DNA of 64,000 bases from an uncultured Spirochaetota bacterium (GTDB lineage: Bacteria; Spirochaetota; Spirochaetia; SZUA-6; Fen-1364). The stretch is taken from NCBI GenBank assembly GCA_963734545.1, contig CAVTHO010000008.1, positions 812,643 through 876,642 of the forward strand. The letters run 5' to 3'. This document shows positions 21,401 through 46,078 of this stretch, one piece after another. A model generated the notes under the pieces. The model ran no database searches, was not told where the DNA came from, and was given only the letters and a program-made list of their open reading frames with translations. The position numbers were made by a program, and so were the translations under genes. Positions within the stretch are counted from its first letter, which is position 1, and each line of letters opens with the position of its first letter.

Positions 21401-21477
21401 AGGAGCGGAAGGATCCGCCGCGCCCTGCCGTCCGGGTAGCGCCTGCGGGTGAACACCTCCAGCCGGGCGGACGACAT
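18462..21477 (-). CDS. purL: Phosphoribosylformylglycinamidine synthase PurL (two apparent frameshifts, ~21130 and ~19600)
   Basis: Three consecutive frames carry KPGVTDP, QTWSEHCKHK, ETHNSPS, DGIHGATFSS, SESQERM, YDHEVQ, DNFCWP, SGKDSM and HDLSDGG; breaks are near G/C runs. Confidence 0.9.
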
Positions 21478-21494
21478 CTCCCTCGTCGCCGCGC

Positions 21495-29796: not shown

Positions 29797-29826
29797 TTGA
29801 CAGCAAACCCAGCGCCGATGTACTTT
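29797..29826 (+). promoter_or_regulatory. Sigma-70 promoter of tRNA-Val
   Basis: TTGACA-18-TACTTT. Confidence 0.65.
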
Positions 29827-29841
29827 ACCAGCAGATTTTCG

Positions 29842-29915
29842 GGGCGATTAACTCAGCGGCCCAGAGTGCTACCTTCACACGGTAGAAGTCACTGGTTCAA
29901 ATCCAGTATCGCCCA
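29842..29915 (+). tRNA. tRNA-Val (CAC), CCA not encoded
   Basis: GGGCGATTAACTCAGCGGCCCAGAGTGCTACCTTCACACGGTAGAAGTCACTGGTTCAAATCCAGTATCGCCCA cloverleaf with anticodon CAC. Confidence 0.93.
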
Positions 29916-29928
29916 TATTGAGCGAGCC

Positions 29929-31390
29929 ATGAGTGATCTGGGCGCGTACGATGCCATCGGGCTGGGCGAGCTTGTCCGCAGGCGAAAGGTTTCCCCCGCG
30001 GACCTCCTGGAGAACACGATCCGCCGCATCGAGGCGGTCAACCCGAGCCTGAACGCAGTCATCTGCACGCTCTGGGACCGGGCCCGGGCGGAAGTGAAGA
30101 AACGCACGGAAAAGGGTGCTGCCTCCGGCGAGCGCTTCCCCGGCGTTCCCTACCTGTTGAAGGACCTCCTGACGGACATGCAAGGCGCGCCATTCGCTGA
30201 CGGGTCCCGGTTCGTGCATGGCCACGTGTCCGCAATCGACAGCGAGCTCGTCGAGCCGGACTCGCAAGAGCGGTCTTGTCATCGCCGGAAGGACGAACAC
30301 GTCAGAGCTCGGCGTGCTCACCACCGCGGAGCCGCTTCTCTACGGCCCGGCGCGAAACCCATGGAACCTCAGGTTGACAACAGGGGGATCCAGCGGCGGA
30401 TCGGCAGCCGCCGTTGCGGCGGGCATGGTGCCGATGGCCCACGGCAACGACGGCGGCGGCTCCATCCGCATCCCCGCGTCCTGCTGCGGAGTGTTCGGCC
30501 TGAAGCCGACCCGGGGCCGCAACAGCCTGGGGCCGCTGTTCGGAGACTTCGCCCATGGCATCGTTTGTGAGCATGCCCTTACCCGCACGGTGCGGGACTC
30601 CGCGGCTCTGCTCGACGTCACCTCGGGCGCCGTCCCCGGTGATCCCTACGTTGCCCCGGCCCCCGCGCGGCCCTTCCTCGAGGAAGCGCGCCGAAGCCCC
30701 GGCCGGCTGAAAATCGCTTTCCTCTCTCGCGTGCCCGACGGCTGGAACGAGGAGACGGCGCTGCATCCGGATTGCGCGGCCGCCGTGCACGATGCCGCTC
30801 GGCTCTGCGAGTCCCTCGGCCATACGGTGGTGGAGGCAGACCCGGCCGCCCTTGCCTGGCCCGACCTGCCCCGGCGTTTCATCACGATTTTCTCATCCTT
30901 TGTCGGGCACTCGGTGGCGTACTGGGAGCGTACGCTGGGGAAGTCAGTGACACGGGAGGATCTGGAGCCGGTGACATGGGACTTGTACCAGGCGAGCCAG
31001 GGGATCACCAGTGCCGCCTACCTGGTAACGTGGGAGGAGCTGCAGCGCTTCTCACGCAAGGTGGCATGCTGGTACCGGGACGGCGGGTGGGATGTCCTCC
31101 TGTCCCCCACGATGCAGGTCCCTCCGACGGAACTCGGGTCCTTCGACCCGTCGCCCGGCGATCCGGGGAAATCGATCAGGCTCGCGCTGTCTTTCGTCGC
31201 TTTCACGCGCACGCAGAACATCACCGGGGATCCGGCCATGTCCGTCCCTCTCTACTGGAACAAGGACGAGGTGCCCATCGGGGTGCAGTTCGCGGCGCCC
31301 TTCGGCGCCGAGGCGACGCTCTTCCGGCTCGCCGCGCAACTGGAGAAGGCGCGGCCGTGGGCTGCGCGGAGGCCGCCCGTGCACTGCTGA
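29929..31390 (+). CDS. Amidase-signature family amidase (one apparent frameshift, ~30256)
   Basis: GVPYLLKD in the first frame; [20 protein letters not shown] and [12 protein letters not shown] in the second. Confidence 0.88.
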
Positions 31391-31429
31391 GCCGCCCCTC
31401 GAGCAGCGCCGCATAGAATCCACGCTGCT

Positions 31430-31468
31430 CCTGCAATCCTTATTGCGGGCCGCAATCTGTATTGCAGG
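31430..31468. promoter_or_regulatory. Tandem palindromes GCAAT-N4-ATTGC, candidate upstream activator sequence
   Basis: GCAATccttATTGC (31433-31446) and GCAATctgtATTGC (31452-31465), about 100-135 bp upstream of the predicted sigma-54 start site. Confidence 0.65.
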
Positions 31469-31540
31469 CCGCGCGTGTGTATCGAGCCCCACCTCTTACG
31501 CTAATTCTTTACAAATAAAGCAATTGACAAATGCCCGATG

Positions 31541-31557
31541 TTGGCATGCCCCTTGCT
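31541..31557 (+). promoter_or_regulatory. Sigma-54 (-24/-12) promoter of the lipid operon
   Basis: TTGGCAT-GCCCC-TTGCT, near-consensus TGGCAC-N5-TTGCW; AT-rich IHF-like tract at about 31501-31531. Confidence 0.75.
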
Positions 31558-31569
31558 TTGTCTCTTGTC

Positions 31570-32547
31570 ATGATGAAGAACATATTGAAGTTCCTGAAAG
31601 AGTACGTAAAGTCGATGCGGCTCTACTACTCATTCGTCACGGGCATCGCCGGCTGGATCGGCATCACCTGCTATGAGTATTCCGCCGACCTTCCGACCTC
31701 GGGAGCCGGCGCAAGAAAACTCGTCATTCTGGTACTTGCGTTCCTGGGCTGGGGAATAAACCAGATCGTCAACGACTACCTCGGTCTGCCGGAGGACCGA
31801 ATCAACGCACCCCGGCGGCCCATGGTCACAGGAGCCCTCGACCCTCGGAAAGCTCTGCTCCTCTCGTCGTTCCTCATGCTTGGTGCTGCTGTGGTCACCT
31901 GGCTTTTCCTGGAGCCCATTGCGATCGTGTTCCTCCTGGCAGGAGTCATGCTGAACGTGCTGTACGAAAAGGCGAAAGGATACGGCGTCTGGGGCAACAT
32001 CGTTTTCGGCCTGATGATCTGCATGGTGACCCTGTACGGCTTTTTCGCGATGGGCCCCGTCCATGGATTCCGCTGGCTGTCCCGCATCCTGCCGGTGCTT
32101 GCTCTCCTTTGCACGATCAACGGGCTCATGACCCTGTACACGTATTTCAAGGACTACTCCGGGGATCGACGAACCGGGAAAAGAACATTGATTGTCATCT
32201 GGGGGCTGAAGAGATCGAGGATCTGCGCCTTCGCAGGGGCCTTTCTGCCGCTGTCGGTGTTCGTTCTCCTCATGGCTGCCAACAAGCTCCCCATCCACAT
32301 TGGCGCCGAGTTCATGCTCCTCGGCTCGCTGGCCCTGGCCCTGCAGATCTGGACAGGAGCTCTCTTCTATTTGAAGCCCGTCGGAAAGGCGACGTACACA
32401 TCCCTGGGAGTCAATTTCAAGGCGTGCGTATGCGCGGAAGCCGCCCTGCTGTCACTGTTCGACCCCCTGCTGGGCGTTCAACTCTTCGTCATTTCGTATT
32501 TCGCCGTGACCTTTCTCTTCTTTCTGCACAAAAACGCCAAGGCCTAG
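31570..32547 (+). CDS. UbiA-superfamily prenyltransferase (DGGGP synthase/chlorophyll synthase-like)
   Basis: NQIVNDYLGLPEDRINAPRRPMVTG and FKDYSGDRRTGKRTL Asp-rich motifs; multiple TM helices. Confidence 0.88.
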   Translation: MMKNILKFLKEYVKSMRLYYSFVTGIAGWIGITCYEYSADLPTSGAGARKLVILVLAFLGWGINQIVNDYLGLPEDRINAPRRPMVTGALDPRKALLLSSFLMLGAAVVTWLFLEPIAIVFLLAGVMLNVLYEKAKGYGVWGNIVFGLMICMVTLYGFFAMGPVHGFRWLSRILPVLALLCTINGLMTLYTYFKDYSGDRRTGKRTLIVIWGLKRSRICAFAGAFLPLSVFVLLMAANKLPIHIGAEFMLLGSLALALQIWTGALFYLKPVGKATYTSLGVNFKACVCAEAALLSLFDPLLGVQLFVISYFAVTFLFFLHKNAKA

Positions 32548-32558
32548 AGGAGGAAGTG

Positions 32559-33776
32559 ATGATCGCGCTTCAGCCGGCACGGATCGGCGCAGTGGTACTG
32601 AAGAACAGGATAGTCCGTTCGGCAACGTACGAAGGTCGATGCGACGATCATGGATTTCCGGATGAAAGCTATCGAGACCTGTACGCGGAGCTGGCGCGCA
32701 ACGAGGTCGGAGCGATGATCACGGGTTTCACCTATATCACGCGTTCCGGCAGAGCCATGCAGCCCCGGCAAGCGGGGATCGAGAACGAGTCCAAGATTCG
32801 ATTCTACCGGGAAGTCACCCGTGCGGTGCACAGCCATGACGGCAGGATATTCATGCAGCTTGCTCATACGGGGCGGCAGACCTCGCGCCAGGCAACGGGT
32901 GAAGAAGTTGCAGGAGCCAGCGGGAAACGGTCTCGCTACTTCAATCAGAAGCCCCGGTCACTTGAAGCGCGTGAAGTCCTTCGGATCGTGGAGCAGTTCG
33001 CCGACTCCGCGGTACGCGCCATGCAGGCCGGGTTCGACGGCATACAGCTCCATGCGGCACATGGCTACCTCATTCACCAGTTCCTTTCACCCGCCATCAA
33101 CACCAGGAAGGACTTGTTCGGCATCGACAGAGAATCTCGGCTGGGAATCCGCTTCCTCGACCTGATCATCGACTGCATCAGGCAGAAGTGCGGACCGCAC
33201 TACCCCGTCCTGGTGAAGATCAGCGGCGGGGATGACGGCCGAAACGGCATGTCCGAGACTCGGCTCGTACGACTGATTCACTTCCTCAACACCAAGAAGG
33301 TGGATGCGATCGAGATCAGTTGCGGCACCATGGAACGTCCACTGGATATCTTTCGCGGCGCCAGCATTCCGCTGGACGTGATACTGCGCTGCAACCCGCG
33401 ATACAGGATTCCGGGCGCACTCCGGCGTTCTCTCTGGAAGACCCTGGCCGCGCCTTTCATTCTGGCCCGAACAAGGCCGCTCACCCCCGCGTACAATCTC
33501 CACTTCGCCGAAACGGCCAAGAGGCATTCGGACGTCCCGATCATCAGCGTGGGCGGCTTCCGCAGCGGCGGCCAGATCGAGTCGTCCCTCGCCGACGGCA
33601 AGACGGACTTCATCGGTTTGTGCAGGCCCCTGCTGTGTGAGCCTGATTTCGTACAGAGACTGAAGGAGAACAACTCCTACGTCTCGCGATGCGTCAGCTG
33701 CAACGTGTGCGCAGTTCTCTGCGACACGCGAAGTCCGACGCGATGTCATTTCGGGGAGGCAGTCCATGAGTATTGA
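32559..33776 (+). CDS. NADH:flavin oxidoreductase (Old Yellow Enzyme family) with C-terminal Cys cluster
   Basis: KNRIVRSAT, QLAHTG, GFDGIQLHAAHGYL..QFLSP, CRPLLCEP, CVSCNVC..C. Confidence 0.9.
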   Translation: MIALQPARIGAVVLKNRIVRSATYEGRCDDHGFPDESYRDLYAELARNEVGAMITGFTYITRSGRAMQPRQAGIENESKIRFYREVTRAVHSHDGRIFMQLAHTGRQTSRQATGEEVAGASGKRSRYFNQKPRSLEAREVLRIVEQFADSAVRAMQAGFDGIQLHAAHGYLIHQFLSPAINTRKDLFGIDRESRLGIRFLDLIIDCIRQKCGPHYPVLVKISGGDDGRNGMSETRLVRLIHFLNTKKVDAIEISCGTMERPLDIFRGASIPLDVILRCNPRYRIPGALRRSLWKTLAAPFILARTRPLTPAYNLHFAETAKRHSDVPIISVGGFRSGGQIESSLADGKTDFIGLCRPLLCEPDFVQRLKENNSYVSRCVSCNVCAVLCDTRSPTRCHFGEAVHEY

Positions 33777-34017
33777 AGAGCGGGTCATATCAGTGGTGCG
33801 AGAAAATCTGGAGAACGGCAGAGAGATCCCCATCACCCCGGGGAGCGAGCTGGTGAAGGATCTGGAAATCGATTCCGTGAGCGCCCTGACGATCCTTTTC
33901 GGTCTGGAAAAGGAGTTCTCCGCTTCTCTGCACGAATCGATGTTCGGCAGCTGCAAGACCGTTCACGACGTCATCGCCAGCCTCGAAAGACAGTTGCCGC
34001 AGCTGCGGGGAGGCTGA
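33766..34017 (+). CDS. Acyl carrier protein
   Basis: 83 aa, acidic, DLEIDSVS phosphopantetheine motif, LEKEF, KTVHDV. Confidence 0.88.
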   Translation: MSIEERVISVVRENLENGREIPITPGSELVKDLEIDSVSALTILFGLEKEFSASLHESMFGSCKTVHDVIASLERQLPQLRGG

Positions 34018-34018
34018 G

Positions 34019-35200
34019 ATGAGCACACCGGGTTATCTCGAGCAGCTCACGATCGACAAGAGCCTCGCGGAAACGCTGAACTTCAACCCGTATTATCAGG
34101 TCCTGCGATCCGGTCTGGGAGACCCGATCAGAGTCGGCGGCGAAGAGTTCATCAACCTCGCTTCGAACAACTATCTCGGCATCGGCAGCTCGGACAGAGT
34201 CAAGAAGGCCATGATCGACGGCGTGCAGCGATATGGCGTCTCCATGTGCGGCACTCCCATTGCAACCGGCTATGTCGATGCGTTTGCCCGGCTCGAGCGG
34301 AGACTGGCCGGGTTCGTCGGTCTGAAGGATTCCACCGTATTCCCCTCCTGCTATCAGGCGAACCTCGGCGTCTTTTCCGCCATCGCGAGGAAGGAAGATG
34401 CGATCATCTTCGACCACTATGCGCATTCGTCCCTCGTGAGCGGCATCAGGGCGGTGGGATGCAGGGCGCTGGCATTCCTTCACAACGATACTCGCCATCT
34501 GGAGAAGCTCCTGCAGAGCACATCGGGCTGCCGACAGACCTTTGTCGTGACGGAATCCGTGTTCTCAACTGAAGGGAGCATCGCGCCGTTTCGTGAGATC
34601 GTTCAATTGTGCGCCGCGCATGACGCCATTCCTGTCGTTGATGACTCCCACGGCATCGGCGTGCTCGGAAAGAACGGGCGAGGAATACTCGAGGAGCAGA
34701 ATATCGAGAGCTACCCGGGCATCTACACGGCCTCCCTGGGCAAGGCGCTCGCAAATTTCGGAGGAATGGTCGCCGGCAGCGCGAACCTGATCGAATACCT
34801 GCGGTATGCCTGCCCCGCTCTCATCTACTCCACGGCCCTGCCGCCTTCGATCCTGCTGGGAATAGAGGCGGCCCTCGACATTGTCGAAGAGGAATTCACG
34901 GTGCGGGCCCGGCGGATGTGGAGATACAAGAACCTCGTATCCTCCCGGCTTCAGGAGCTCGGCTTTTCAGTCATTGCCGGCGAGGCGCCGATCACATCTG
35001 TGGCCTGCGGCGGGCTTGCAGACACGCTGCGCTTCGCCCGGGAGCTCTACTCGCAGAAGATTCTCGCCACGCCGTTTGTCCCCCCCTCTGTCCCGCCGAA
35101 CATGGGCAGAGTCCGGCTCATCGCCGGGGCAGACCTGCAGGAGTCTTCCGTCCAGCGGGCTCTGGATGCCTTTTCCCGGATCGCAGAGGGACGATCATGA
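34019..35200 (+). CDS. PLP-dependent alpha-oxoamine synthase (serine palmitoyltransferase/BioF/KBL family)
   Basis: NLASNNYLG, DHYAHSSL, HND, TESVFSTEG, VDDSHGIG, SLGKAL (PLP Lys), PPSVP..RVR. Confidence 0.9.
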   Translation: MSTPGYLEQLTIDKSLAETLNFNPYYQVLRSGLGDPIRVGGEEFINLASNNYLGIGSSDRVKKAMIDGVQRYGVSMCGTPIATGYVDAFARLERRLAGFVGLKDSTVFPSCYQANLGVFSAIARKEDAIIFDHYAHSSLVSGIRAVGCRALAFLHNDTRHLEKLLQSTSGCRQTFVVTESVFSTEGSIAPFREIVQLCAAHDAIPVVDDSHGIGVLGKNGRGILEEQNIESYPGIYTASLGKALANFGGMVAGSANLIEYLRYACPALIYSTALPPSILLGIEAALDIVEEEFTVRARRMWRYKNLVSSRLQELGFSVIAGEAPITSVACGGLADTLRFARELYSQKILATPFVPPSVPPNMGRVRLIAGADLQESSVQRALDAFSRIAEGRS

Positions 35201-36168
35201 AGTACTTCTTCGTCCTGAATCCGGGCTCCGCGGGAGGGAAGAGCGGACGTCGGTTTTCCTCTGTGCACGAAGCTGTCACGCGTCGGCGCGTCAGGTTCGA
35301 TTTCGAGATTTGCCGCAGCCTCGACCACGCGTGCGACCTGTCGCGGATGGCAAACCGGTCAGGGTACGACGTCGTCGTTGCCGTCGGAGGAGACGGCACC
35401 ATCAATCAGGTGCTCAACGGATTCTATGACGAAAGGGGCGGGCGGATCTCGGATGCCTCGCTGGGGGTCCTGCATACGGGAACGAGCCCTGATTTCTGCA
35501 AGAGCCACGCCATCCCGTGTCAACTCGAGAGCGCCCTGGAGCTGCTTTTCGGAGGATGCACGAAGAAGATCCCTGTCGGCAGGATCACGCTGGCACGGCA
35601 GTTCGAACCGGCATTCGATGGAAAACCCGTATCGGACGACGCTCTCTTCCACACGCGGTACTTCGCGTGCTGCGCCAATATCGGCCTGGGAGCATCTGTG
35701 GCCCGCTGCGCAAACAACGGAATCAGGAAACGGCTCGGAGACTCTCCGGGCACTTTCATTGCCATCCTGAGAAGCCTGGCCCGGTTCGAACAATCCTCCT
35801 TCACGATCGTCCGTGATGGCAAAGCCCAGACCATACCCCGGCTCGTCAACCTGGCAATCGGAAAGACCTTCCACGTTGCCTCCGGCATCAAAGTCAGGAG
35901 CGAGCTGCGCGAGCATGATCGGCGCTTCTACTGCCTTGCTCTCCACGATCTGCGGATGGTCGATGTCGTGCCCTGCCTCGTGTCGCTCTACAGCGGGAGG
36001 ACGATCCAGGGCACGGGATACGCGGAGCTCGGGTACTGCTCGTCGATCCAGGTCCTGGGAAACAGCCGGTATCCCGAAGTGGAATACGACGGAGACCCCC
36101 AGGGATTTCTCCCCTGCCGCATCGAGACGGCTGCTGACGAGCTCTCCGTGATCGGAAAGCCATCATGA
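35197..36168 (+). CDS. Diacylglycerol/sphingosine/ceramide kinase family lipid kinase
   Basis: LNPGSAGG, VGGDGTINQVLNG, TGTSPDF, EYDGD; ATGA overlap with the AOS gene. Confidence 0.88.
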   Translation: MKYFFVLNPGSAGGKSGRRFSSVHEAVTRRRVRFDFEICRSLDHACDLSRMANRSGYDVVVAVGGDGTINQVLNGFYDERGGRISDASLGVLHTGTSPDFCKSHAIPCQLESALELLFGGCTKKIPVGRITLARQFEPAFDGKPVSDDALFHTRYFACCANIGLGASVARCANNGIRKRLGDSPGTFIAILRSLARFEQSSFTIVRDGKAQTIPRLVNLAIGKTFHVASGIKVRSELREHDRRFYCLALHDLRMVDVVPCLVSLYSGRTIQGTGYAELGYCSSIQVLGNSRYPEVEYDGDPQGFLPCRIETAADELSVIGKPS

Positions 36169-37193
36169 GCGTCGAGAAGAGCCTCATCGAGTTGATCGAC
36201 CACATTCTCCCGAAGGACCCGACGTGCCTGACCAAATGCTTCGAAGCAGATGCCCAGGTCATCAGGCTGGGCACCGGGACATTCGTCTTTTCGACTGATG
36301 GATTCTCGCACGAGGACCTGCTGCAGGAGAAAGATCCCTTCCGCCTTGGCTGGAACGTCGCGGTGGGCGCAATCAGCGACATCCTTGCCGTCGGCGGCGT
36401 GCCTCTGCTCTATGCGCACACGATGAGCATCGAGCCCCGGTGGAACGCGGCCTTCATTGAGAGATTTTCCAGAGGGGTGGCCAGGGCGCTGGAGTTGTCC
36501 GGGATCACCTTCATCGGGGGTGATCTCGGAAGGTCGGGAGAATGGAAGTATGCCGCCTCGGTGATCGGCACGCTGGCGGGAGAGCCGGTGCTCAGAAAGG
36601 GCGCATCCGAAGGAGACAGCATCTACCTTTCCGGCGAGGTCGGCGCCGGCAACCTGGAAGCGGCCATGAGCCTGTACGCCCGCAGGGTGGGATGTGCCGC
36701 GGCGGCGGGCAGGATCTGCGGCAGGTTCCACCTCCGCCTCTCGGAAGCCAGGCTCATGAAAAAGTACGCGACATCCGCAATCGACACCAGCGACGGCGTC
36801 TTTGACGCCCTGAGCACGTTGTCTGAGATAAATGGTACCGGCTACGTCGTGGAGAATCTGCCGTACCTCCGGCGGGGAGTCCTGCTCGCGAAGCTCCTCG
36901 CGGTGCCCCCATCCCTCCTCTTCTTCGGCGGATGCGGCGAGTACGAGCTTCTCTTCACGGTCAAGAGAGAAGAGGAGGCGGCGTTCCTGTCGGAGGCGCG
37001 GGAAAAAGGGCTGAGGTTCTACCGGCTGGGCGGAATAACCGGCGGGAAATCTCCGCAAAAGATTCTGCGGGAAAACGGCGCGCGCATCGATCTGTCACAG
37101 GTGAGCATGTCGGCCCGGGACTTCGGCACTGCGGAGGAGTACCTGGAGAAACTGCAGGCGATGGTGGAGGGACTGAAATGCCAAGGGTCGTGA
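36165..37193 (+). CDS. ThiL-like (PurM/AIR-synthase superfamily) kinase
   Basis: STD, AISDILAVGG, IGGDL, LRKGASEGD, AIDTSDG, GEYELLFT; diverged from canonical ThiL. Confidence 0.82.
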   Translation: MSVEKSLIELIDHILPKDPTCLTKCFEADAQVIRLGTGTFVFSTDGFSHEDLLQEKDPFRLGWNVAVGAISDILAVGGVPLLYAHTMSIEPRWNAAFIERFSRGVARALELSGITFIGGDLGRSGEWKYAASVIGTLAGEPVLRKGASEGDSIYLSGEVGAGNLEAAMSLYARRVGCAAAAGRICGRFHLRLSEARLMKKYATSAIDTSDGVFDALSTLSEINGTGYVVENLPYLRRGVLLAKLLAVPPSLLFFGGCGEYELLFTVKREEEAAFLSEAREKGLRFYRLGGITGGKSPQKILRENGARIDLSQVSMSARDFGTAEEYLEKLQAMVEGLKCQGS

Positions 37194-38446
37194 TCACGGG
37201 CATCGGAATCCTGACCTCGCTCGGAGTCGGGAAGGATGAGTTCATGCGGAACCTCTTTCTGCAGAAAACTCCTCTGGCAGCCATACCCGCCTCTTTTGAG
37301 AAGCATTATTCCTTTACATCCAGGTTCTATGTTCCGTTCTCGGTTCCCGCCCTGAACGACTATGGCATCCCGTCGCATCATCAATGCTTCATGCAGGACG
37401 CTCACAAGATCGCCGTTATTGCCGCGAAACTGGCTCTCTCGGACGCGGGGTTCTTGATTTCCAGTGACGGGCGATCCTTCAGAATCGAAGAGCTCGCGGA
37501 TTGCGGCGTCTGCATCGGGATGGGCTTCCTGGGGATGCGCGAGGGCTTCTCATCATACCTCGCCCACCTGGCCGGCGAGGACGGGCCGCCGTTTTCCTGG
37601 ATCTCGAAAAGCGTCCGGTTCAACAGGCTGATCATCCCGGTCATGATGCCCAATTCAGTGTCGGCATGGATTTCGATCCTGTTTCATCTCAATGGAAGCT
37701 CCTGCACCGTGAATGCCTCCTGCGCGTCGGGAACGCTGGCCATCGGCGAGGCATTCAGGAGGATAAAGGACGGATACGAGACGGTGGCCCTGGCAGGCGG
37801 GGTGGAATGCCTGAAAGACGAATGCGGCGGCGTGATGCGCGGGTTCGATGTTCTCGGAGCGCTCACCCGGGCGGAAGACGGCAGACCGTTGCCCTTTTCA
37901 GGCCGGAGAAGCGGCTTTCTTTTTTCGGAGGGCGGCGGATGCATCCTCGTCCTGGAAGAGCTCGCGCATGCGCGAAGTCGCGGCGCTTCGATATATGCTG
38001 AAATCGCCGATTTCAGGTCAAACAGCGACGCCTGCAGCATTCTCCAGATGGAGGGGAGCGGGGCGCAGATCAGGAGACTCCTGAAGGACCTGAAAGGCGA
38101 TCGGACCATCGACTATCTGAACTCCCACGGCACGGGAACGGCGGCAAACGATTCGATCGAGGCGCGAGCCATTCACGAGGTCTTCGGCAGCAGAGACGCG
38201 CAGCCGTTCATCGACGCGACAAAAGGGATACTTGGCCACACCGTGGGAGCCAGCGGAGCCATAGAGGCCGCCGTGGTGGCGCTGTCCATCAGGGAATCCA
38301 GGATTCATGGCAGTGCGGTACCTGACCCCATCCCTGATCTCAATCTCGCTTCCTGCAATCAGAGCTTGCCCATCACGTACGCCATCTCGACATCCTACGG
38401 GTTCGGAGGGCACAACGCCGGACTCCTCTTTCGGAGGTATGGATGA
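37178..38446 (+). CDS. Beta-ketoacyl-ACP synthase (FabF/FabB-type)
   Basis: RVVITGIG; Cys-His-His triad in ASCASG, NSHGTGT and GHTVGASG; SYGFGGHN. Confidence 0.92.
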   Translation: MPRVVITGIGILTSLGVGKDEFMRNLFLQKTPLAAIPASFEKHYSFTSRFYVPFSVPALNDYGIPSHHQCFMQDAHKIAVIAAKLALSDAGFLISSDGRSFRIEELADCGVCIGMGFLGMREGFSSYLAHLAGEDGPPFSWISKSVRFNRLIIPVMMPNSVSAWISILFHLNGSSCTVNASCASGTLAIGEAFRRIKDGYETVALAGGVECLKDECGGVMRGFDVLGALTRAEDGRPLPFSGRRSGFLFSEGGGCILVLEELAHARSRGASIYAEIADFRSNSDACSILQMEGSGAQIRRLLKDLKGDRTIDYLNSHGTGTAANDSIEARAIHEVFGSRDAQPFIDATKGILGHTVGASGAIEAAVVALSIRESRIHGSAVPDPIPDLNLASCNQSLPITYAISTSYGFGGHNAGLLFRRYG

Positions 38447-39497
38447 TGGACCGTGTCATGATCACCGGCGCCACCGGTTTCATCGGGAGTCACATCACCC
38501 GCGCGTTCATCGGGCATGGCGTGAAGGTGGGCTGTCTCGTGCGGCGATGCAGCGATCTCGCGAATCTCGAAGGGCTGAACGTCGAGCTGCGGTATGGGGA
38601 CATTCGGGACAGAGAAAGCCTGGTCAGCGCTTTCAAGGACTATGACGCGGTCATTCACAATGCCGCCCTCGTTGCCGACTGGGGGCCATACAGGGATTTC
38701 TACCAGACCAACGTGCGGGGCACGCTCAATGTCATGGACGGCATGCCTGCAGAACGGTATTGAGAAGATCATCATGGCAGGCTCCAACGCCGTGTATGGT
38801 GAGGAAGACTGCAGGACATCAAAGAACGAGGATTCACCTCTCAATCCCCATTACCGCTATTTTCTCGGGAGAATTGTTCCCTGCAAGCTCAACTATTACC
38901 GGGACACCAAGACCCTGGCAACGGTCCTCGCTTCGGACTACGCCCGGAAGTTCGGGCTGAACCTCACGATTCTGGATCCCGGTGTGGGTGTACGGCGAGC
39001 GGGAGCTGCATACCGGCTTCTACGAGTACCTTCGCTCGGTACAAGGCGGGATGATCGTCACGCCGGGATGCAGACGCAACAAGTTCCATGCCATTTATGC
39101 GGGAGATCTGGCAGAGGCGTATTACTGTGCGTTCCGCAAGGGAGTGAGCGGTGTCAGAAGGTTTATCATCGGCAATGAGCGAGCCGAGCGAATGTCCACA
39201 ATCTACGGGCTTCTCTGCCGTGAAGCTCGGCTCAAGCCGCCGCGAAACCTCCCCAAGTTCATTTTCTACCCGGTCGGGCTTCTCATGGAAATCCTCTGGA
39301 GCGCGCTGGGTTTCGCGGCGCCGCCGCTGCTGACCCGGGGAAGGGTGAACCTCTTCTACGACAGCATCACGTACTCCGTGGAAAAGGCGAAAAAGATGCT
39401 CGGCTTTGCGGGCACGTACTCCCTGGAGGAGGGCATCGCAAGGACCGTGTCCTGGTATCGAACAAATCACCTGCTGCAGGGGAGGGAAAAACCATGA
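38443..39497 (+). CDS. Extended SDR, NAD-dependent epimerase/3-beta-HSD-like reductase (two apparent frameshifts, ~38740 and ~38980)
   Basis: ITGATGFIG, HNAA, TNVRGT; GSNAVYG and YRDTK (YxxxK) in the second frame; WVYGE and KAKKMLG in the third. Confidence 0.85.
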
Positions 39498-40795
39498 TCG
39501 ATCCTCGAAGCGTATCCGGTCTCGCCAAGCACGTTTTCAATGCAAAATTGAAGCTTGTCATTTTCTTTCGCTTCATGCGCCCTCTGATCACAGGGGAGCT
39601 GTCTCCGGCCCGGTTCATCCTGCTCCTGAGGAGGCTGCTGTATTTCTTCTCTCGACTCCAGAGCAACAAGTTCGTTCGGATCGGGAAACAGACGCGAGTC
39701 GATCTCTATGTCCCGTTTTTTCCCACGAAGGCATTCTTCGCTGCCTGCCGCAAGTTCACGACCTTCGGTGAAAAGCTGCCCTGCACGACCGCCCTCATTT
39801 CAGTCACTTCGGCCTGCCGCTTCAACTGCAGCCACTGCTACCAGAAGATGGACCGTGGAAAGGACGTGGATATCGGACGGCTGGTTCAGGTGGCGGCAAG
39901 GCTGCAGGAGAAGGGCATTGCTTTCTTCAACATCGAAGGTGGTGAACCGTTTCTCGTGTTCGACCGTCTCAGGAGAGTATGCGCGGCAATCGATGACCGG
40001 TCGGAGGTATGGGTGAACTCCACCGGCGACGGAATGACTTTGGAACGGCTCCGGGAGCTGAAAACGCTGAATCTCACCGCCGTCATGTTCTCTCTGCATT
40101 CGCCTGTCCCTGATGATTTCAACGCTTTTCTGGGATCTGAGAGAGCCTGGGCCACGATGCTGAACGGGGTCCATCTCTGCCATCAGGCCGAGGTGCCCGT
40201 GGCGTTCAATATGTGCCTGCAGAGAGAAGGCTTCTCTGACGGGACTTTCGAGCGGCTCATGGACAAGGCCAGGGAGCTCGGGGCGTCGATCATCCAGCTC
40301 ATCAAGCCGAAGCCCTCGGGAGGATGGCTGCGCTGCGGCGTGGAGGAGTTCCGGCCGCAGGACGTCATGCGCATGAAAACCCTGGTCAGTGACTACAACA
40401 CCAGGCGCGAGTACGGAGATTTTCCCTCGATCTCAGCACAGATGCTCGAGGAAGATCCGTCGCGCTTCGGCTGCACGGCGGGAGGAACCGATCGGTTCTA
40501 TATCAACGCGAAAGGGGATCTGCAGCCCTGTGAGTTTCTGAACCTGTCTTTCGGGAATATCGCCACGGACGACTTCGACACAATCTATGACACCATGAGA
40601 AGCTGCTTCGAGAGGCCCGGCGTGAACTGGCTGTGCGAGAAATGCGCCGGCAGCGTCCTCCAGCGTGTCACGAGCCATGACCTGCACTCCCTTCCGCTCG
40701 ACCCAGGGCTCTCCAGGGAAGTCTACGGGTCCTGGGATCGGGGCAGTCCGACGGAGCTCTATGACACCATCGAGAACAGGTTGAGCCCCCGTTGA
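39494..40795 (+). CDS. Radical SAM protein with SPASM/twitch-like domain
   Basis: CRFNCSHC, GGEP, GCTAGG..FYINAKGDLQPCEF, later Cys residues; N-terminal extension. Confidence 0.9.
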   Translation: MIDPRSVSGLAKHVFNAKLKLVIFFRFMRPLITGELSPARFILLLRRLLYFFSRLQSNKFVRIGKQTRVDLYVPFFPTKAFFAACRKFTTFGEKLPCTTALISVTSACRFNCSHCYQKMDRGKDVDIGRLVQVAARLQEKGIAFFNIEGGEPFLVFDRLRRVCAAIDDRSEVWVNSTGDGMTLERLRELKTLNLTAVMFSLHSPVPDDFNAFLGSERAWATMLNGVHLCHQAEVPVAFNMCLQREGFSDGTFERLMDKARELGASIIQLIKPKPSGGWLRCGVEEFRPQDVMRMKTLVSDYNTRREYGDFPSISAQMLEEDPSRFGCTAGGTDRFYINAKGDLQPCEFLNLSFGNIATDDFDTIYDTMRSCFERPGVNWLCEKCAGSVLQRVTSHDLHSLPLDPGLSREVYGSWDRGSPTELYDTIENRLSPR

Positions 40796-40838
40796 TTGAA
40801 GCTCTCCATGCGGGCCGTTCTCCTGAAGTCAAGAGTCG

Positions 40839-43800
40839 TCAGCTGGAGCTGGCGAACGCCGAAACGAGGCCACCCACGTAATCCTTGACCGGCGGAGAGC
40901 TCCACATGCCGGATTCCTGACCGCGGCGGAGCAGCTCGAGGATCTCCGGCCCTTCTTCCACGAAGATGCGGAGGTATCCCTCAGGCTGCGCCAGCCCTAC
41001 AGCTTCGCTCAGAGCATCAAGGGCATCCCCCTGGGCGGAAGCCGAGGCCCTTGCTTTCGCCTGGAGGACGAGGATCTCGATGAGGGGACCAATGCGTCCT
41101 CCCGACCGCGCAGAGAAGGCAAGGTCATCGAGCAGGCGCGAGATGTCGGCCGAGCCCGGGTCCGTCACACCGGCAGCCAGGCGAACCCGGGCCAGGCAGA
41201 TGAGCTCCACCTCCCGATTCACAGGACTCGCCGCTTTCCCCGGCTTGTACTCGCGCATCCACGCCTCGGCAGCTGCGCTGTCCCCGCACGCGAGATACGT
41301 CTTCACCCTGTCGGCCTCGAAAATCGGCAGGAGCGTGGCATGGATGAGGGCGCGCCGCGGAAGCGATTGTACTTTCGCAAGCTCCTCCTGCGCCCGCGCG
41401 GCCTGTCCACGCGATCGGAGCACGCGCGCCAGCGACTGGCGGGTGAGATACACGTCGGAGGGCAGGCCCCACGCCTCCACGTCCTTCACCGCTTTTTCGG
41501 CAATCCTCAGCGCGTCATCAAGCTCGCCTCGTTCCCTCTTGAGCTCAGCCATCAGGGCATACACTTTGGCGATCGGCCCGCTCCCGCGCGCGTGGCGCCG
41601 CCCCGCCAGGGCATCGAACTCCTCCAGCAGGGCCAGCGCATCGCGGAGCCGGCCCTGAAGGCGGCGGAGATGCGCAAACTCGTACACCGCGCTGGCGATC
41701 GACCAGATGCTTCCGGCGGCATGGCTCGCCCGCAGAAACTCCTTGCAGCCCTCCTCGGCTTTTTCCAGCTCTCCCTGGTAGCGATAGGATTTTTCCAGGA
41801 TATAGAGGATCAAAGTCCTGGGCATATCTTCCTTCGGGGGCAGGAGCCGGTCAGCCCTGCCGGCGAGCTCGACGGCCTCCGCGGTCTCCCCTGCCATGTC
41901 GGCGAGAACGGCCCGGATGATTGCCACGGTTCCCTCGAGGGTCCGGATGCTGTCGGAATCCTTCCCGGCTTCGGAAATACTCTTCTCCGTCCGATCCAGC
42001 AGAGCCTCGGCCTCCTGCCGTCGTCCCGCCCATGCCAGGGTCCAGGCAGCGGCCATGCAGTGTCCGGGGCGTTTCTCCATCACCTCCGAGGGGATCTCCC
42101 TGCACCAGCGCTGCAACTGGCTCAGCGCACCCTGGCCGATGATATCGAAGAACCTTGCCTCGATGAGGTCCGCGGCTTTCTCGTGGGCCTCTGCCGCCAG
42201 GTATTCCTGGATCGCCTCGACGAGCTCCCCCTGTCCGGCAAACCAGTCGCCCGCCCTGATGTGGAGTGCATGAATCTTCTCGGGAAGCCGCTCGAGCTCC
42301 AGCTTGTGCCGCAGCAGGTCGGCGAAGAGGTGGTGGTAGCGAAACCAATTCCTCTGCTCGTCCAGGGGGACGAGGAACAGGTTCATCCGCTCCAATTGCT
42401 GCAGGGTCTCCTGGCATCCACGCCGTCCTGTCACCGCTTCGCACAACCCGGCGCTCATCCTGGTCATGATCGAAGTATCGAGGAGAAGCTGCTTGAGGTC
42501 TTCGTCCAGACGGGAAAACACCTCCTCGGCAAGATATTCCAGGATGTAGCGTTGAGTTCCGCTGAAAGACGCGATGAAGCCGTCCACGTCCTCCCGTCCC
42601 TGAAGGGAGAGAGCCGCCATCTGCAGCCCCGCAACCCAGCCTTCGGTCCGCTTCTCCAGCACGGCGACCTGGGCCGGGGAAAGGGACAGGGACATTGCCC
42701 GATCGAAGAATTGCTCGGCCTCGGCGGCGGTGAAACGCAGATCTTCCGCGCGAATTTCCGCAACGCGGTCCTGCGAGCGCAGGCGCGCGAGCGGAAAGGG
42801 CGGATCGGCACGGCTTGCAATGAAGATGCCGAGCGACGCAGGCCTGTGGTCGATCAGGAACCGCACCGCTGCATGGACCTCCAGCGTGTGGATGAACTGG
42901 TAGTCGTCAAGGACCAGGGCGATGCCCTTCCCCTGCTCCTCGATGGCGTTGATCAGGGCGGTCATGACGAGCTCTGCCGGGGCGGGCGGCGTGGCCCGCA
43001 GCATCTGGCTCGCCTCCTCCCCCACGCCCTCCCCGGTCCTCATGATCGAAGCTGCGAGGTGGAGCAGGAAGCGGGGGAGATCATTGTCTCCCTCATCGAG
43101 TGAGAGCCAGGCGACAGGCATCCCGGCCCGCGCAGCCAATTCAGAAAGGATTGTCGTCTTGCCAAAACCAGCCGGAGCGGATACGACCACCAGGCCGCGC
43201 GCCAGGCCCTGCTCGAGGAGGCGGATGAGCCTGCCTCTTCTGACCATTCCATCGCGAACGGGTGGAACCGAAAGCTTGGTGCCGAGCAGGCCCGGGAAAA
43301 GATCTGCGCCCTGCGCGGGCGGCTGCACCGCTCGCGGCTCTTCGATCCGGTGAGCTGCGCATTCGACTCTCCGGGCCCGGCTCGCGGTGTGTCCTTCGTT
43401 TTCTCCCGCGGTCCGATCTGACGGGACAGGATCTGGTTGTAGAGGTCCCGGGTCCCCTTTTCCGGTTCCTGGCCAAACTCTCCCCGCAGCGCCTCGGCAA
43501 ACTCCTCGTACTGCCTGATGGCGGCGCTTCGCTGACCCGAAAGCGCAAGCGTCTGTATCAGCAGGGCCTGGGCCTGCTCGTGCATCCTGTCCTGCGCAAG
43601 CCAGCGCTTCACCGACTGGAGAGCATCTTCCCAGCGCTCGGCCGCGGCGTGACAACGGGCAGATCTCTCGAGAAGCCACCCGAGCTCGGCTCTCAGGCTC
43701 TCCCTTTCCGCCACCTGCCAGTCGTCGAACCCAGGGCAGCCAGGGAGGTTGAAGCCTTCGAGGAACTCGCCCTGGAAGAGCCGTATCGCATTCACCACCC

Positions 43801-44191
43801 GCTCGAGGCACTCAGGGCACCGCTCCCCTGATTCGTGAGGATGGGCCTTTACATCCGCGACAAGCCGCCGCGCGGCACGCACGTCGATCCACAGGTCCGC
43901 GTCCGACCGCACGCTTATCCTGTCCCGCTCTGGCTCCAGCCAATCCCCGGGAATGCTCGCGTGGAGCGAGGCGAGGCTCCGCCGCAGGTTCGCAGGAGCG
44001 CGATTCTGGTCGAATTCCGGCCAGAAGAGGGCCGCCAGTTTCTCCCGCGATTGGGGATGCTCGTTCAGACTGAGATAGGCAAGAAGGGCGGTGGTCTTTC
44101 GCGTTTCGAGCCGCACGTGGCTGCCGGAGAGCTCGACTCGAGGGTGACCGAGCCAGTAGAGCCCCAGGCGCGGCCCGCTTCCCTGCTTCAC
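40839..44191 (-). CDS. SARP/BTAD plus MalT-like ATPase-TPR transcriptional regulator (one apparent frameshift, ~43350-43400)
   Basis: N-part: LLAYL..REKLAALFWP, BTAD (GEFLEGF, FDDW). C-part: TKL..P, APAGFGKT, LVLDDY, TEGWVAGL, WFRYHHLF, TPRs. Likely GTG start 44191. Confidence 0.82.
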
Positions 44192-44278
44192 AAACTGATA
44201 TTGTACACGCCGCTGCGGCACGGGACAAGACCGGGAGCATAGTGTGATAGAATGGCCTGCCGGACGAGGAGTAGAGTC

Positions 44279-46078
44279 GTGAATGAATTGCCCCCCTTCG
44301 ACGTGTACGGGGACGCAAAGGTCATCACCCGGATCTTCAACTCATTCATTGCAGTGATCCTGGTGTCGCTCATGGTGGGGATTGTCATCATCCTCGCGAC
44401 AAAGGATGCAATCCGGGCAGTGAGCATCGGCCTCAGCCTCCCCTTCGTGCTGGCAGCCGCCCTCTTCATCCGATGGAAACGCTTCGAGCGGGCGGCCGTG
44501 TCTCTGGCGGTCGTGCTCCTCGGCCTCTGCACGGCGGTCGCGACCCAGGGATTGGGCATCCACGACATCAGCAATCTGGGGATCGCATCCGTCCTTATCA
44601 TCGCGAGCATGGTGACAAAGAAGCGCACCATGGTGTTTCTCACCCTCTTTGCTGTCGCCTGCCTCGCCTGGCAGGTGTTCGGCGAGCTGGCGGGGGTGTA
44701 CCGGCCTTCGGCGCTCGTGCACAGCGTCCCCGGTGATTTCATTACCGCCTCGCTCATCATCGGGGCCACCGCTTTCATGGTCCGCCTGTTGTCGGAGGCC
44801 CTGTTTCAGAGTCATCGTCAGCTGCACAGCGAATTGCGGGAGCGGAAGAGCGCCGAGGTGCAGCGCGAGGCGTTGACTCACAAGCTCGAGCAGACGCAGG
44901 AGCAATTCCTGCAATCGCAGAAAATGGAGGCCATGGGACGACTGGCCGGCGGCATTGCCCACGACTTCAACAACGTCCTCACGATTATCGGAGGCTACTC
45001 GGAATTGCTCCGGGAGGACGTCTCTTCGACCGAACCCCAGAGGGGTTACACGGAGGAGATCGCCAAGGCTGCCCGGCGCGCCGCTGGGCTGACCCGGCAG
45101 CTCCTTGCCTTCAGCCGGAAGCAGGTGCTCCAGACCCAGGTCGTGGACTTGAACAAAGTGGTCCGCGGCATGGAGGGCATTCTTACGCGCATCATCGGAG
45201 AGGACATCGAGCTCTCCACGGTCCTTGCCCCGGGACTCGGCCGGGTGAGAGTGGACTCCTCGCAGATCGAGCAGGCTATTCTGAATCTTGCCGTCAATGC
45301 GCGGGACGCCATGACGAAGGGCGGGAAGCTGATTCTCGAGACCTCCGAAATCATCCGCAATGAAGCCGGGCCGGGCGGACAAGACGGACCGCTTCCGGGG
45401 CGCTGCGTGATGCTTCGGGTGAGTGACACCGGAGGCGGTATGACCCCCGAAGTCCTCAGCCATCTGTACGAGCCTTTCTTCACAACAAAGGAGCAGGGCA
45501 AGGGCACGGGGCTCGGTCTCTCCATGGTCTACGGCATCGTGACCCAGAGCTCGGGCTCAATCGAGGTCGACTCGACTCCGGGGCGCGGGACGAGCTTCAG
45601 GATCTTCCTGCCGATTGTTGACGAAGCGCCATTGGAGAGCCGCCCGGATGGCCCGGAGCGCGGCCCCTACCGGGGCTCGGAAAGCGTGCTGATCGTCGAG
45701 GACGAACCGGCGGTTCTCGAGTTCGCCGTACGGGTCCTGGCGGACAAAGGATACACGGTCCTGCGCGCCACGCACGCGGCAGAGGCGCTGCGAATCTGCC
45801 GCGAAAACGAGACGCCCATCCACCTCGTCGTGACCGACATGGTCATGCCGGGCGGCATGAACGGGCGGGAGCTGGCTCGCGAGCTTTCCCAAACGCGCCC
45901 GGGCGTGCCGGTGCTTTTCATGTCAGGCTACGTGGCCGACGCCATGGATGACGGCGGCGCGGCCGAGGAACCGATCCACCTGCTGGAGAAGCCTTTCACC
46001 CCCGCCTCCCTCGCGCAGAAGGTTCGCGATGTGCTCGACACCCCGAACAGACAAGCCGCAGCTCCGGAGCCTGAGTGA
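44279..46078 (+). CDS. Membrane-bound hybrid histidine kinase/receiver (CckA-like)
   Basis: TM N-terminus, AGGIAHDFNN, NLAVNARDA, EPFFTTK..GTGLGL, receiver (VEDE, TDMVMP, KPF). Confidence 0.92.
   Translation: MNELPPFDVYGDAKVITRIFNSFIAVILVSLMVGIVIILATKDAIRAVSIGLSLPFVLAAALFIRWKRFERAAVSLAVVLLGLCTAVATQGLGIHDISNLGIASVLIIASMVTKKRTMVFLTLFAVACLAWQVFGELAGVYRPSALVHSVPGDFITASLIIGATAFMVRLLSEALFQSHRQLHSELRERKSAEVQREALTHKLEQTQEQFLQSQKMEAMGRLAGGIAHDFNNVLTIIGGYSELLREDVSSTEPQRGYTEEIAKAARRAAGLTRQLLAFSRKQVLQTQVVDLNKVVRGMEGILTRIIGEDIELSTVLAPGLGRVRVDSSQIEQAILNLAVNARDAMTKGGKLILETSEIIRNEAGPGGQDGPLPGRCVMLRVSDTGGGMTPEVLSHLYEPFFTTKEQGKGTGLGLSMVYGIVTQSSGSIEVDSTPGRGTSFRIFLPIVDEAPLESRPDGPERGPYRGSESVLIVEDEPAVLEFAVRVLADKGYTVLRATHAAEALRICRENETPIHLVVTDMVMPGGMNGRELARELSQTRPGVPVLFMSGYVADAMDDGGAAEEPIHLLEKPFTPASLAQKVRDVLDTPNRQAAAPEPE

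Follow-up and report, generated by a model that had tools for sequence, protein, structure and literature searches.

Nine tightly packed genes in a spirochaete contig

We analysed a 64,000-nucleotide stretch of DNA (the window) from the genome of an uncultured peat bacterium of the Spirochaetota, an assembly of 10 contigs that is 89% complete, in which nine genes lie end to end between positions 31570 and 40795. The nine open reading frames (ORFs) are all on the + strand and are joined by ATGA start/stop overlaps, except for one 11-nt overlap and one 1-nt gap. An earlier note on this DNA (the original prediction) had described such a co-oriented, tightly packed set; we found the ORFs where it had placed them and confirmed the overlaps, and the family names that it gave to the nine products hold as well, with Pfam placing each product in the named family above the gathering score.

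The first four genes encode a UbiA-family membrane prenyltransferase that resembles DGGGP synthase (DGGGPS) and ChlG (31570-32547; PF01040, 91.8 bits against a gathering score of 34.2), an OYE-family FMN reductase with a C-terminal four-Cys Fe-S motif and without an NAD(P)H domain (32544-33776, with an ATGA overlap with the UbiA gene; PF00724, 180.4 bits), a dedicated acyl carrier protein (ACP; 33766-34017, with the 11-nt overlap with the OYE gene; PF00550, 26.1 bits) and, after the 1-nt gap, a pyridoxal phosphate-dependent alpha-oxoamine synthase (AOS) of a distinct clade (34019-35200; PF00155). Each of the remaining five genes shares an ATGA overlap with the gene before it. These encode a soluble lipid kinase of the diacylglycerol kinase (DAGK) type with the DgkB/YegS/BmrU fold (35197-36168; PF00781 and PF19279, YegS_C), a ThiL-like ATP enzyme of the PurM superfamily (36165-37193; PF00586, AIRS), a FabF-type beta-ketoacyl-ACP synthase (KS; 37190-38446; PF00109 and PF02801), an extended short-chain dehydrogenase/reductase (SDR) that is similar to HpnA, OleD and 3beta-HSD and is split by two single-base insertions (38443-39497; PF01370 on the pieces), and a radical S-adenosylmethionine (SAM) enzyme with a twitch/SPASM-type auxiliary Cys domain and a 95-residue N-terminal helical extension (39494-40795; PF04055 and PF13186). 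None of the nine products reaches the curated cut-off of any NCBIfam model; therefore, the nine proteins are without a name in the NCBI rule set of June 2026.

The candidate start codons of the UbiA gene are the ATG codons at 31570 and 31573, which would be nearly leaderless, and a TTG at 31585. The AGGAG and the start ATG found in relatives align with the ATGATG and with an ATA (31582) of the window, so that translation in the window would begin from ATG 31570/31573 or from TTG 31585.

Conservation, acquisition and promoter of the block

The block is not a chance arrangement, since collinear copies of it recur in other genomes. Relatives of the ThiL-like protein at 45-55% identity are found in many named anaerobes, and a profile constructed from 23 such relatives identified 219 loci among 185,579 species (one genome each), of which we examined the best 80. 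Based on tblastn searches with the window proteins, the DAGK-type kinase is present in 76 of these 80 loci, the AOS in 72, the KS in 71, the two SDR pieces in 69 and 68, the UbiA protein in 68, the OYE reductase in 67 and the radical SAM enzyme in 66, while the ACP was detected with a hidden Markov model (HMM) in 67. Gene order is nearly always collinear; the Bacteroidales have a permuted order, in which ThiL-KS-SDR-radical SAM precedes UbiA-OYE-ACP-AOS-DAGK. All nine genes are present in 49 of the 56 loci that have sufficient DNA on both sides (the other 24 are truncated). The seven incomplete loci lack the KS (four loci, two of which also lack the ACP), the OYE gene (two), the UbiA gene (one) or the ACP alone (one). 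The KS alone is lost in L004 and L050, and both the KS and the ACP are lost in L070 and L079; the OYE gene is retained in all four.

The carriers, which are all anaerobes, fall under ∼17 phylum-level names in the record titles of the loci: Bacillota, Omnitrophota, Latescibacterota, Calditrichota, Thermodesulfobacteriota, Cloacimonadota, Bacteroidota, Ignavibacteriales, Fusobacteriaceae, Acidobacteriota, Verrucomicrobiota, Spirochaetes, Chitinispirillaceae, Auribacterota, Sumerlaeota, Mcinerneyibacteriota and Neomarinimicrobiota. No flanking genes are conserved except for regulators that are lineage-specific: 20 Bacillota loci have a helix-turn-helix (HTH) protein and 6 Omnitrophota loci have a MarR protein. 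Thus, because the flanks are not conserved, the nine genes form a unit, one that is kept together elsewhere, and its intact retention across ∼17 phylum-level groups of anaerobes is a sign of strong selection. On a single NCBI contig, one predicted protein of 781 aa (P0121) joins the ThiL-like and KS domains; it is either a true fusion or a gene-calling artefact, and too thin a basis for ordering steps.

In the window, the SDR gene is spread over three reading frames (38443-38763, 38594-39178 and 38982-39497); the original prediction had mentioned SDR frameshifts. We compared Logan contigs from four public runs over positions 38300-39700. The three runs that cover the SDR gene, from wetland and freshwater metagenomes, yielded contigs of 1445 nt (X2), 1581 nt (X3) and 2804 nt (X6) that are 95-99% alike, and each of these is without one base at ∼38739 and one at 38978 or 38981. 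Omission of the two extra bases restores a single SDR frame of 350 codons that closes at the annotated stop. Because both frameshifts are missing from the contigs of close relatives in three runs, the SDR gene is probably intact and the frameshifts are probably artefacts of assembly or strain. The simplest reading is that the insertions are single-base assembly errors, or at most strain-specific lesions, and not decay of the pathway.

Other genes in the window are split as well. An amidase gene (29797-31390) is divided into overlapping ORFs at 29797-30570 and 30218-31390, but three congeners have it as a single open frame (492-593 aa), and its split is probably a further single-base assembly error. 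Convergent to the operon, on the - strand, a STAND-type regulator with BTAD, AAA and MalT-type TPR domains (40839-44221) is likewise split into two overlapping ORFs. Since both are split in the manner of the SDR gene and the amidase is intact in congeners, the pattern points to assembly indels. The gene for formylglycinamide ribonucleotide (FGAM) synthase (PurL; 18462-21565, - strand) also consists of two overlapping ORFs (19529-21565 and 18462-19883) with AIRS domains in each, which may be due to another assembly frameshift.

In this spirochaete lineage, the operon is an accessory block that was acquired horizontally, and not a spirochaete trait. The ThiL-like gene was found in none of 20 genomes of the same genus, in none of 4 other genomes of the family, and in only 1 of 16 genomes of the order (G025). 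The nearest congener that has the same amidase is G014 (93% DNA identity). There, 6.2 kb of unrelated DNA separates the amidase from the pdxT/GntR genes, while the corresponding distance in the window is 14.7 kb; the segment in the congener is without the operon, the STAND-type regulator and a hybrid histidine kinase. The GC content of the operon is 59.4%, compared to 64% on either side. Moreover, the window AOS is closest to copies from Calditrichaceae and Omnitrophota, and not to a spirochaete copy (L070), in a FastTree analysis of 39 rows. The hybrid histidine kinase gene (44252-46078) follows the regulator gene, and both are within the 14.7-kb segment. Upstream of the copy in G025 (locus L110), the - strand carries two more genes, one for another radical SAM/SPASM protein and one for a glycosyltransferase of the GT28 type (525-1541 and 1538-2617).

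Upstream of the operon is a candidate sigma-54-type -24/-12 promoter, TGGCATgccccTTGCt (31542..31557, + strand), with one mismatch to TGGCAC-N5-TTGC. This site, TGGCATgccccTTGC at 31542-31556, is 43 nt before TTG 31585. Alone, it does not exceed chance, as the window contains 5 one-mismatch sites with 4.2 expected, but an alignment matches it, column by column, to perfect sites in four other loci (L162, L127, L153 and L110). The last of these is from the genome of the same order; its perfect site, TGGCACataaaTTGCA, lies 53 nt ahead of the UbiA start, with a strong ribosome-binding site after it. Among metagenome loci with upstream DNA, 5 of 50 have a site, compared to an expected background of ∼0.005 per locus. 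Four of these five sites are perfect, with three distinct sequences (L162, whose UbiA protein is 76% identical; L127/L128; and L153), and these perfect sites all lie 42-44 nt ahead of the UbiA start. The -24 and -12 elements are the sole conserved block upstream of the coding region in the alignment of relatives. No sigma-54 site was found upstream of the UbiA gene in 63 genome loci of other lineages, and a sigma-70 and terminator scan of 31300-41000 gave nothing above shuffled sequences on the + strand upstream of the UbiA gene. The genome encodes RpoN (TIGR02395, 395.8 bits with a cut-off of 277). Neither the 45 window ORFs that were scanned nor the 7 ORFs that flank the L110 copy gave a PF00158 match, as expected of an enhancer-binding protein; with the genome itself not searched, such a protein could be encoded elsewhere. 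The positional footprint in the closest relatives, together with the presence of rpoN, upholds the sigma-54 label of the original prediction and supports the idea that the operon of this sub-lineage was placed under sigma-54 control, with HTH or MarR regulators predicted to act elsewhere.

Catalytic motifs and a proposed amino-lipid route

The residues expected for catalysis are conserved in most of the nine proteins. In an alignment with FabF of Escherichia coli K-12, Cys178, His313 and His350 of the KS fall on the FabF motifs, and they are invariant in 29 orthologues, such that the triad is intact, as predicted; the protein is 32% identical to E. coli FabF and has a score of 238.9 on the fabF equivalog model, which does not reach the cut-off of 493.75. 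The ACP translation holds the Asp-Ser motif (IDSV). In the OYE reductase, H170, H173 and Y175, as well as the four Cys residues C383, C386, C389 and C401 (Cx2Cx2Cx11C), are invariant in 27 orthologues, and G64-G65-D66-G67 is invariant in the kinase. The best solved match to the kinase profile is DgkB (2QV7, E 2.2e-26) and its nearest relatives are DgkB, BmrU and YegS, with SphK1 at E 7e-6. The SDR, with HpnA and OleD as its best NCBIfam matches, begins directly at the Rossmann motif, without a signal peptide. In the radical SAM enzyme, C108-x3-C112-x2-C115 and five further Cys residues (C229, C241, C327, C346 and C381) are invariant; PF13186 is matched with 25.2 bits (gathering score 21.5), and the AlphaFold2 model has a predicted local distance difference test score (pLDDT) of 92.3. 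Its sole sequence match in the PDB is SkfB, and the ESM Atlas gave unnamed radical SAM clusters.

The ThiL-like protein resembles ThiL, which converts a phosphate to a diphosphate, more than any other family or structure: it scores 127.4 bits on the thiL HMM (cut-off 184.15), matches ThiL structures at E 1e-15 to 1e-10, and has an invariant R144 and an invariant DxSDG motif (D207-T-S-D-G211). It differs from ThiL in that it constitutes a separate orthologous group, with the same 45-55% identity across phyla, that is always within a lipid-type block, and none of the other products of the nine genes is a thiamine gene product. A bona fide ThiL (304.9 bits) coexists with the ThiL-like protein in a Prolixibacteraceae genome (G041), one of five carrier genomes checked. 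In a thiL search of the source genome, the operon protein was the top match, with SelD next (338 bits on the selD model).

The UbiA protein is most similar to an archaeal enzyme, DGGGP synthase, which adds the second chain onto a single-chain glycerol phosphate; in the route proposed below, the UbiA protein would do the same to a single-chain lipid phosphate. Among solved structures, its profile matched only DGGGP synthase (6M31, E 4.9e-11) and then chlorophyll synthase. The motifs N81-D82..G85..E88-D89 (ND-x2-G-x2-ED) and D208-x3-D212 are invariant (numbered from 31531), and the second Asp-rich motif is shared with the archaeal enzyme. Unlike the archaeal system, however, the cassette has a UbiA protein with 70-75 bits on the NCBIfam DGGGPS models, which have cut-offs of 269-353 (72.3 versus 296; 70.3 versus 353), and the block has neither a geranylgeranylglyceryl phosphate (GGGP) synthase nor a glycerol-1-phosphate dehydrogenase.

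The AOS is a distinct enzyme by several measures. On NCBIfam models it scores 311.6 bits for bioF (cut-off 426.45), 279.7 for Kbl (460) and 247.6 for Spt(CFB) (640), with 220.1 (500) and 160.1 (670) on other Spt models. Among solved structures, the closest to it are Kbl (201 bits), a Thermus BioF/Kbl, a Sphingobacterium Spt (171) and BioF (167), and from these similar scores the AOS is roughly equidistant from all of them. In the FastTree analysis (39 rows, comprising every third cluster AOS, 23 of 69, and all 16 other rows), the cassette AOS proteins are monophyletic with support of 100, and fall outside the Kbl clade, E. coli BioF, the bona fide Spt and a CapB-like clade; the references are few, with one bona fide Spt (L096, 680.7 bits) and with ALAS and CqsA absent. 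The original prediction had raised the possibility that the AOS groups with BioF or Kbl, but it falls outside both in the tree and below both curated cut-offs. The Prolixibacteraceae carrier also holds a separate bona fide Spt (680.7 bits), and the source genome has four further AOS paralogues (C9:168766-169841, C8:298349-299386, C6:294943-295944 and C7:898021-898953). One of these paralogues is a true Kbl (519.5 bits, above the cut-off), one is beside a classical SDR and one is broken into four frame pieces. The existence of a separate true Spt in the one genome and of a true Kbl in the other indicates that the cluster AOS is a distinct enzyme.

From the gene set and the catalytic motifs we infer a route, in which the product and each chemical step are predictions. 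In the first step, the AOS would form a long-chain alpha-amino ketone by condensation of a small amino acid and an acyl thioester. The dedicated ACP would carry the acyl group and the KS would load or extend it, with a general acyl donor used where the KS and ACP are missing. The cytoplasmic SDR would then reduce the ketone to an amino alcohol, which the DgkB/YegS-type kinase would phosphorylate. The DGGGPS-like UbiA enzyme could O-alkylate the lipid phosphate with a polyprenyl diphosphate to yield a two-tailed phospholipid with a sphingoid-like backbone, and the ThiL-like enzyme could add a second phosphate, converting the monoester to a diphosphate and thereby activating the head group. Redox tailoring without O2 would be the role of the Fe-S OYE reductase and the radical SAM enzyme.

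The invariant core comprises the AOS, a ketone reductase, a lipid-alcohol kinase, a phosphate kinase-like enzyme, a diphosphate-using membrane transferase and two O2-independent redox enzymes. The original prediction had assigned the KS, the ACP and the OYE reductase jointly to the construction of the acyl chain. The KS and ACP can be retained in that role, although apparently as an optional acyl-supply module, because they are lost from otherwise intact loci; the OYE reductase does not appear to be the enoyl reductase of the KS and ACP, because it is kept in the four loci that have no KS.

We consider that the product class is probably a phosphorylated amino-lipid tied to UbiA chemistry, the most likely product being a phosphorylated long-chain amino alcohol to which the DGGGPS-like UbiA enzyme has attached an isoprenoid. 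The reading as a whole, that of a self-contained, O2-independent biosynthetic cassette that has spread among anaerobic bacteria, was acquired horizontally here and is transcribed from a sigma-54 promoter, and carries out this amino-lipid route, is one that we advance tentatively, at a little less than an even chance. The fuller form, in which the cassette makes an undescribed lipid class that combines a sphingoid-type amino-alcohol phosphate with an archaeal-style isoprenoid ether chain (from the DGGGPS-like enzyme) and is activated as a diphosphate by the ThiL-like enzyme, all built without oxygen, seems somewhat unlikely.

Several observations weigh against the amino-lipid route. The AOS is outside the sole bona fide Spt reference and has its top HMM score with bioF. 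In the first Asp-rich motif of the UbiA protein, an invariant Gly replaces the canonical central Asp, although the second motif is intact; the substitution may point to an unusual diphosphate substrate. No other protein is above the thiL cut-off in the source genome or in 4 of the 5 carrier genomes checked, and a plain ThiL role is therefore possible in those genomes. An N-acyltransferase, a polyprenyl-diphosphate synthase and a head-group transferase are absent from the nine products and from the conserved neighbours. The Foldseek neighbours of the radical SAM enzyme are generic twitch/SPASM proteins only (SkfB, BlsE and SuiB, TM ∼0.5), and the roles proposed for this enzyme and for the OYE reductase are guesses. 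No product or assayed step of the operon was found in the literature searched. Finally, the loci were baited with the ThiL-like protein, so that the conservation counts are conditional on it, and they describe the best 80 of 219 loci.

If the fuller form of the reading is true, the lipid would represent a third type of phospholipid backbone, one in which bacterial, eukaryote-like and archaeal chemistry are mixed and which gene transfer has spread among ∼17 phylum-level anaerobe groups; some of the orphan lipids seen in anoxic sediments and waters could originate from it. A hybrid of isoprenoid and amino-lipid would bear on the 'lipid divide' and on O2-free sphingolipid-like synthesis in anaerobes. 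Three of the enzymes probably have new activities: a ThiL paralogue outside thiamine metabolism, a DGGGPS-like UbiA protein whose metal motif is altered, and a radical SAM enzyme of the twitch type that is set among lipid-type genes. As the copy in the window shows, the block can travel as an island and come under sigma-54 control by rewiring. Cultured carriers include Desulfosporosinus lacus DSM 15449, D. hippei DSM 8344 and Petroclostridium sp. X23.

Alternative readings and related pathways

A different use of the two kinases is unlikely, although it has several points in its favor. In this alternative, the two would act in series on the amino alcohol, the DAGK-fold kinase making its monophosphate and the ThiL-like enzyme its diphosphate, such that the UbiA enzyme would transfer the amino-lipid from a non-isoprenoid lipid diphosphate to another acceptor. 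Parallels are found in plants, where phytol kinase and phytyl-phosphate kinase constitute a salvage route that feeds UbiA-type enzymes, and in the use of hydroxymethylpyrimidine diphosphate (HMP-PP) in thiamine synthesis. The ThiL-type residues for phosphate-to-phosphate transfer are invariant; the two kinase genes are adjacent and overlapping, and are the pair most constantly present together; UbiA enzymes bind diphosphate, and the altered first Asp motif fits a non-standard donor; and the polyprenyl-diphosphate synthase is absent from the block. However, UbiA chemistry needs a leaving site at which a cation is stabilised (allylic, benzylic or anomeric), and a saturated amino alcohol has none unless the OYE reductase or the radical SAM enzyme creates an unsaturation. 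Furthermore, the nearest solved relatives of the UbiA protein take ordinary prenyl diphosphates, and in Bacteroidales the kinase and the ThiL-like gene fall in separate halves of the permuted block.

It is quite improbable that the product is a heterocycle, formed if a beta-ketoacyl-ACP and an amino acid (through the KS, ACP, AOS and reductase) cyclise to a hydroxy-pyrroline or pyrrole. With serine as the amino acid, the hydroxymethyl group would be pyrophosphorylated and coupled by the UbiA enzyme, giving a lipophilic signal or pigment, not a bulk membrane lipid. The alkyl-pyrrole modules of prodiginine synthesis (RedL/RedK and PigJ/PigH) use this same logic of KS, ACP, AOS and reductase, and the KS has a weak match to PigJ (53 bits). 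A pyrrolyl-methyl diphosphate would ionise easily, which would suit both the UbiA enzyme and the ThiL-like kinase, and regulators adjoin the block in several lineages. Nevertheless, the KS is missing from 4 of 56 otherwise intact loci (and the ACP too in 2), and therefore beta-keto extension is dispensable. In addition, the UbiA profile matches O-prenylating, not aromatic C-prenylating, enzymes. Unlike the prodiginine modules, the cassette proteins are free-standing rather than fused polyketide synthases, and no other prodiginine genes are present.

An ordinary bacterial ceramide pathway in another gene order, with the extra genes decorating the head group, is very improbable. The known route uses Spt, bCerS and CerR (PMC11087976), and DAGK-related kinases in bacteria phosphorylate ceramide and dihydrosphingosine, with CpgB as the Caulobacter kinase (PMC10331486). 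The cassette mirrors this system (Spt, ACP, CerR and CpgB) in that it has an AOS beside a dedicated ACP, together with a ketone reductase of the epimerase fold and a kinase of the DAGK fold that contains GGDG. It differs in that it is without a ceramide synthase and an acyl-ACP synthetase, and in that it adds the UbiA, Fe-S OYE, ThiL-like, KS and radical SAM enzymes in carriers from strict-anaerobe lineages. The AOS is in a separate clade from bona fide Spt and is far below the Spt cut-off, and one carrier of the cassette keeps its separate true Spt. No bCerS-type acyltransferase domain was found among the nine products or in the conserved neighbour families, although a genome-wide bCerS search was not made. 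CerR is reportedly periplasmic (PMC11087976), whereas the cassette SDR has no export signal; its epimerase fold falls in the broad class that the original prediction gave for CerR, a comparison that included no CerR sequence or model. Thus, because the AOS is outside the Spt clade and there is no ceramide synthase-type acyltransferase, the term 'sphingolipid-like' of the original prediction can be kept as an analogy but not as a statement of membership.

In favor of a ceramide pathway, Ding et al. reported Spt-like genes in 33 Cloacimonadota metagenome-assembled genomes without bCerS or CerR nearby and suggested non-homologous replacements; their main text does not mention an operon, prenyl, radical SAM or a kinase (PMC11334938). 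These Spt-like genes might be the AOS of this cassette. The co-localised GGGPS and DGGGPS homologues of Villanueva et al. represent a different locus type (PMC7852524).

A cofactor-type route (biotin, thiamine or other) or a decaying, non-functional acquisition is highly doubtful: the top NCBIfam matches of the AOS and the PurM-like protein are bioF and thiL, the source genome has no other ThiL above the cut-off and the SDR is frameshifted in the window, but all scores are below curated cut-offs, the AOS clade is separate from E. coli BioF, BioA, BioD, BioB and thiamine genes are absent from the block, both SDR frameshifts are missing from relatives' contigs in three runs, and the similar splits of the regulator and of an amidase that is intact in congeners point to assembly indels.

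No pathway with this gene set was found in the full-text literature searched, which did not extend to subscription journals. This agrees with the original prediction, which called the pathway apparently undescribed, as does the failure to reach any NCBIfam cut-off. The block is thus a widespread orphan biosynthetic operon, intact in relatives, that fits no described pathway.

The cassette also resembles the sulfonolipid (capnine) pathway, which employs cysteate synthase and cysteate-C-fatty acyltransferase (PDB 28eh), in that both start with an AOS that uses a fatty acyl thioester, with a reductase coming next. Unlike the enzymes of that pathway, the cassette AOS is outside the CapB-like clade, and the source genome has a separate cysteate synthase/AOS pair. 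In this pair (G000:C6, L087 40-1323 and 1558-2565), the cysteate synthase-like gene, with 277.6 bits on TIGR03844 (cut-off 324.9), is directly upstream of an AOS paralogue. Since these two genes are similar to the first two of sulfonolipid synthesis, the source spirochaete may make sulfonolipids.

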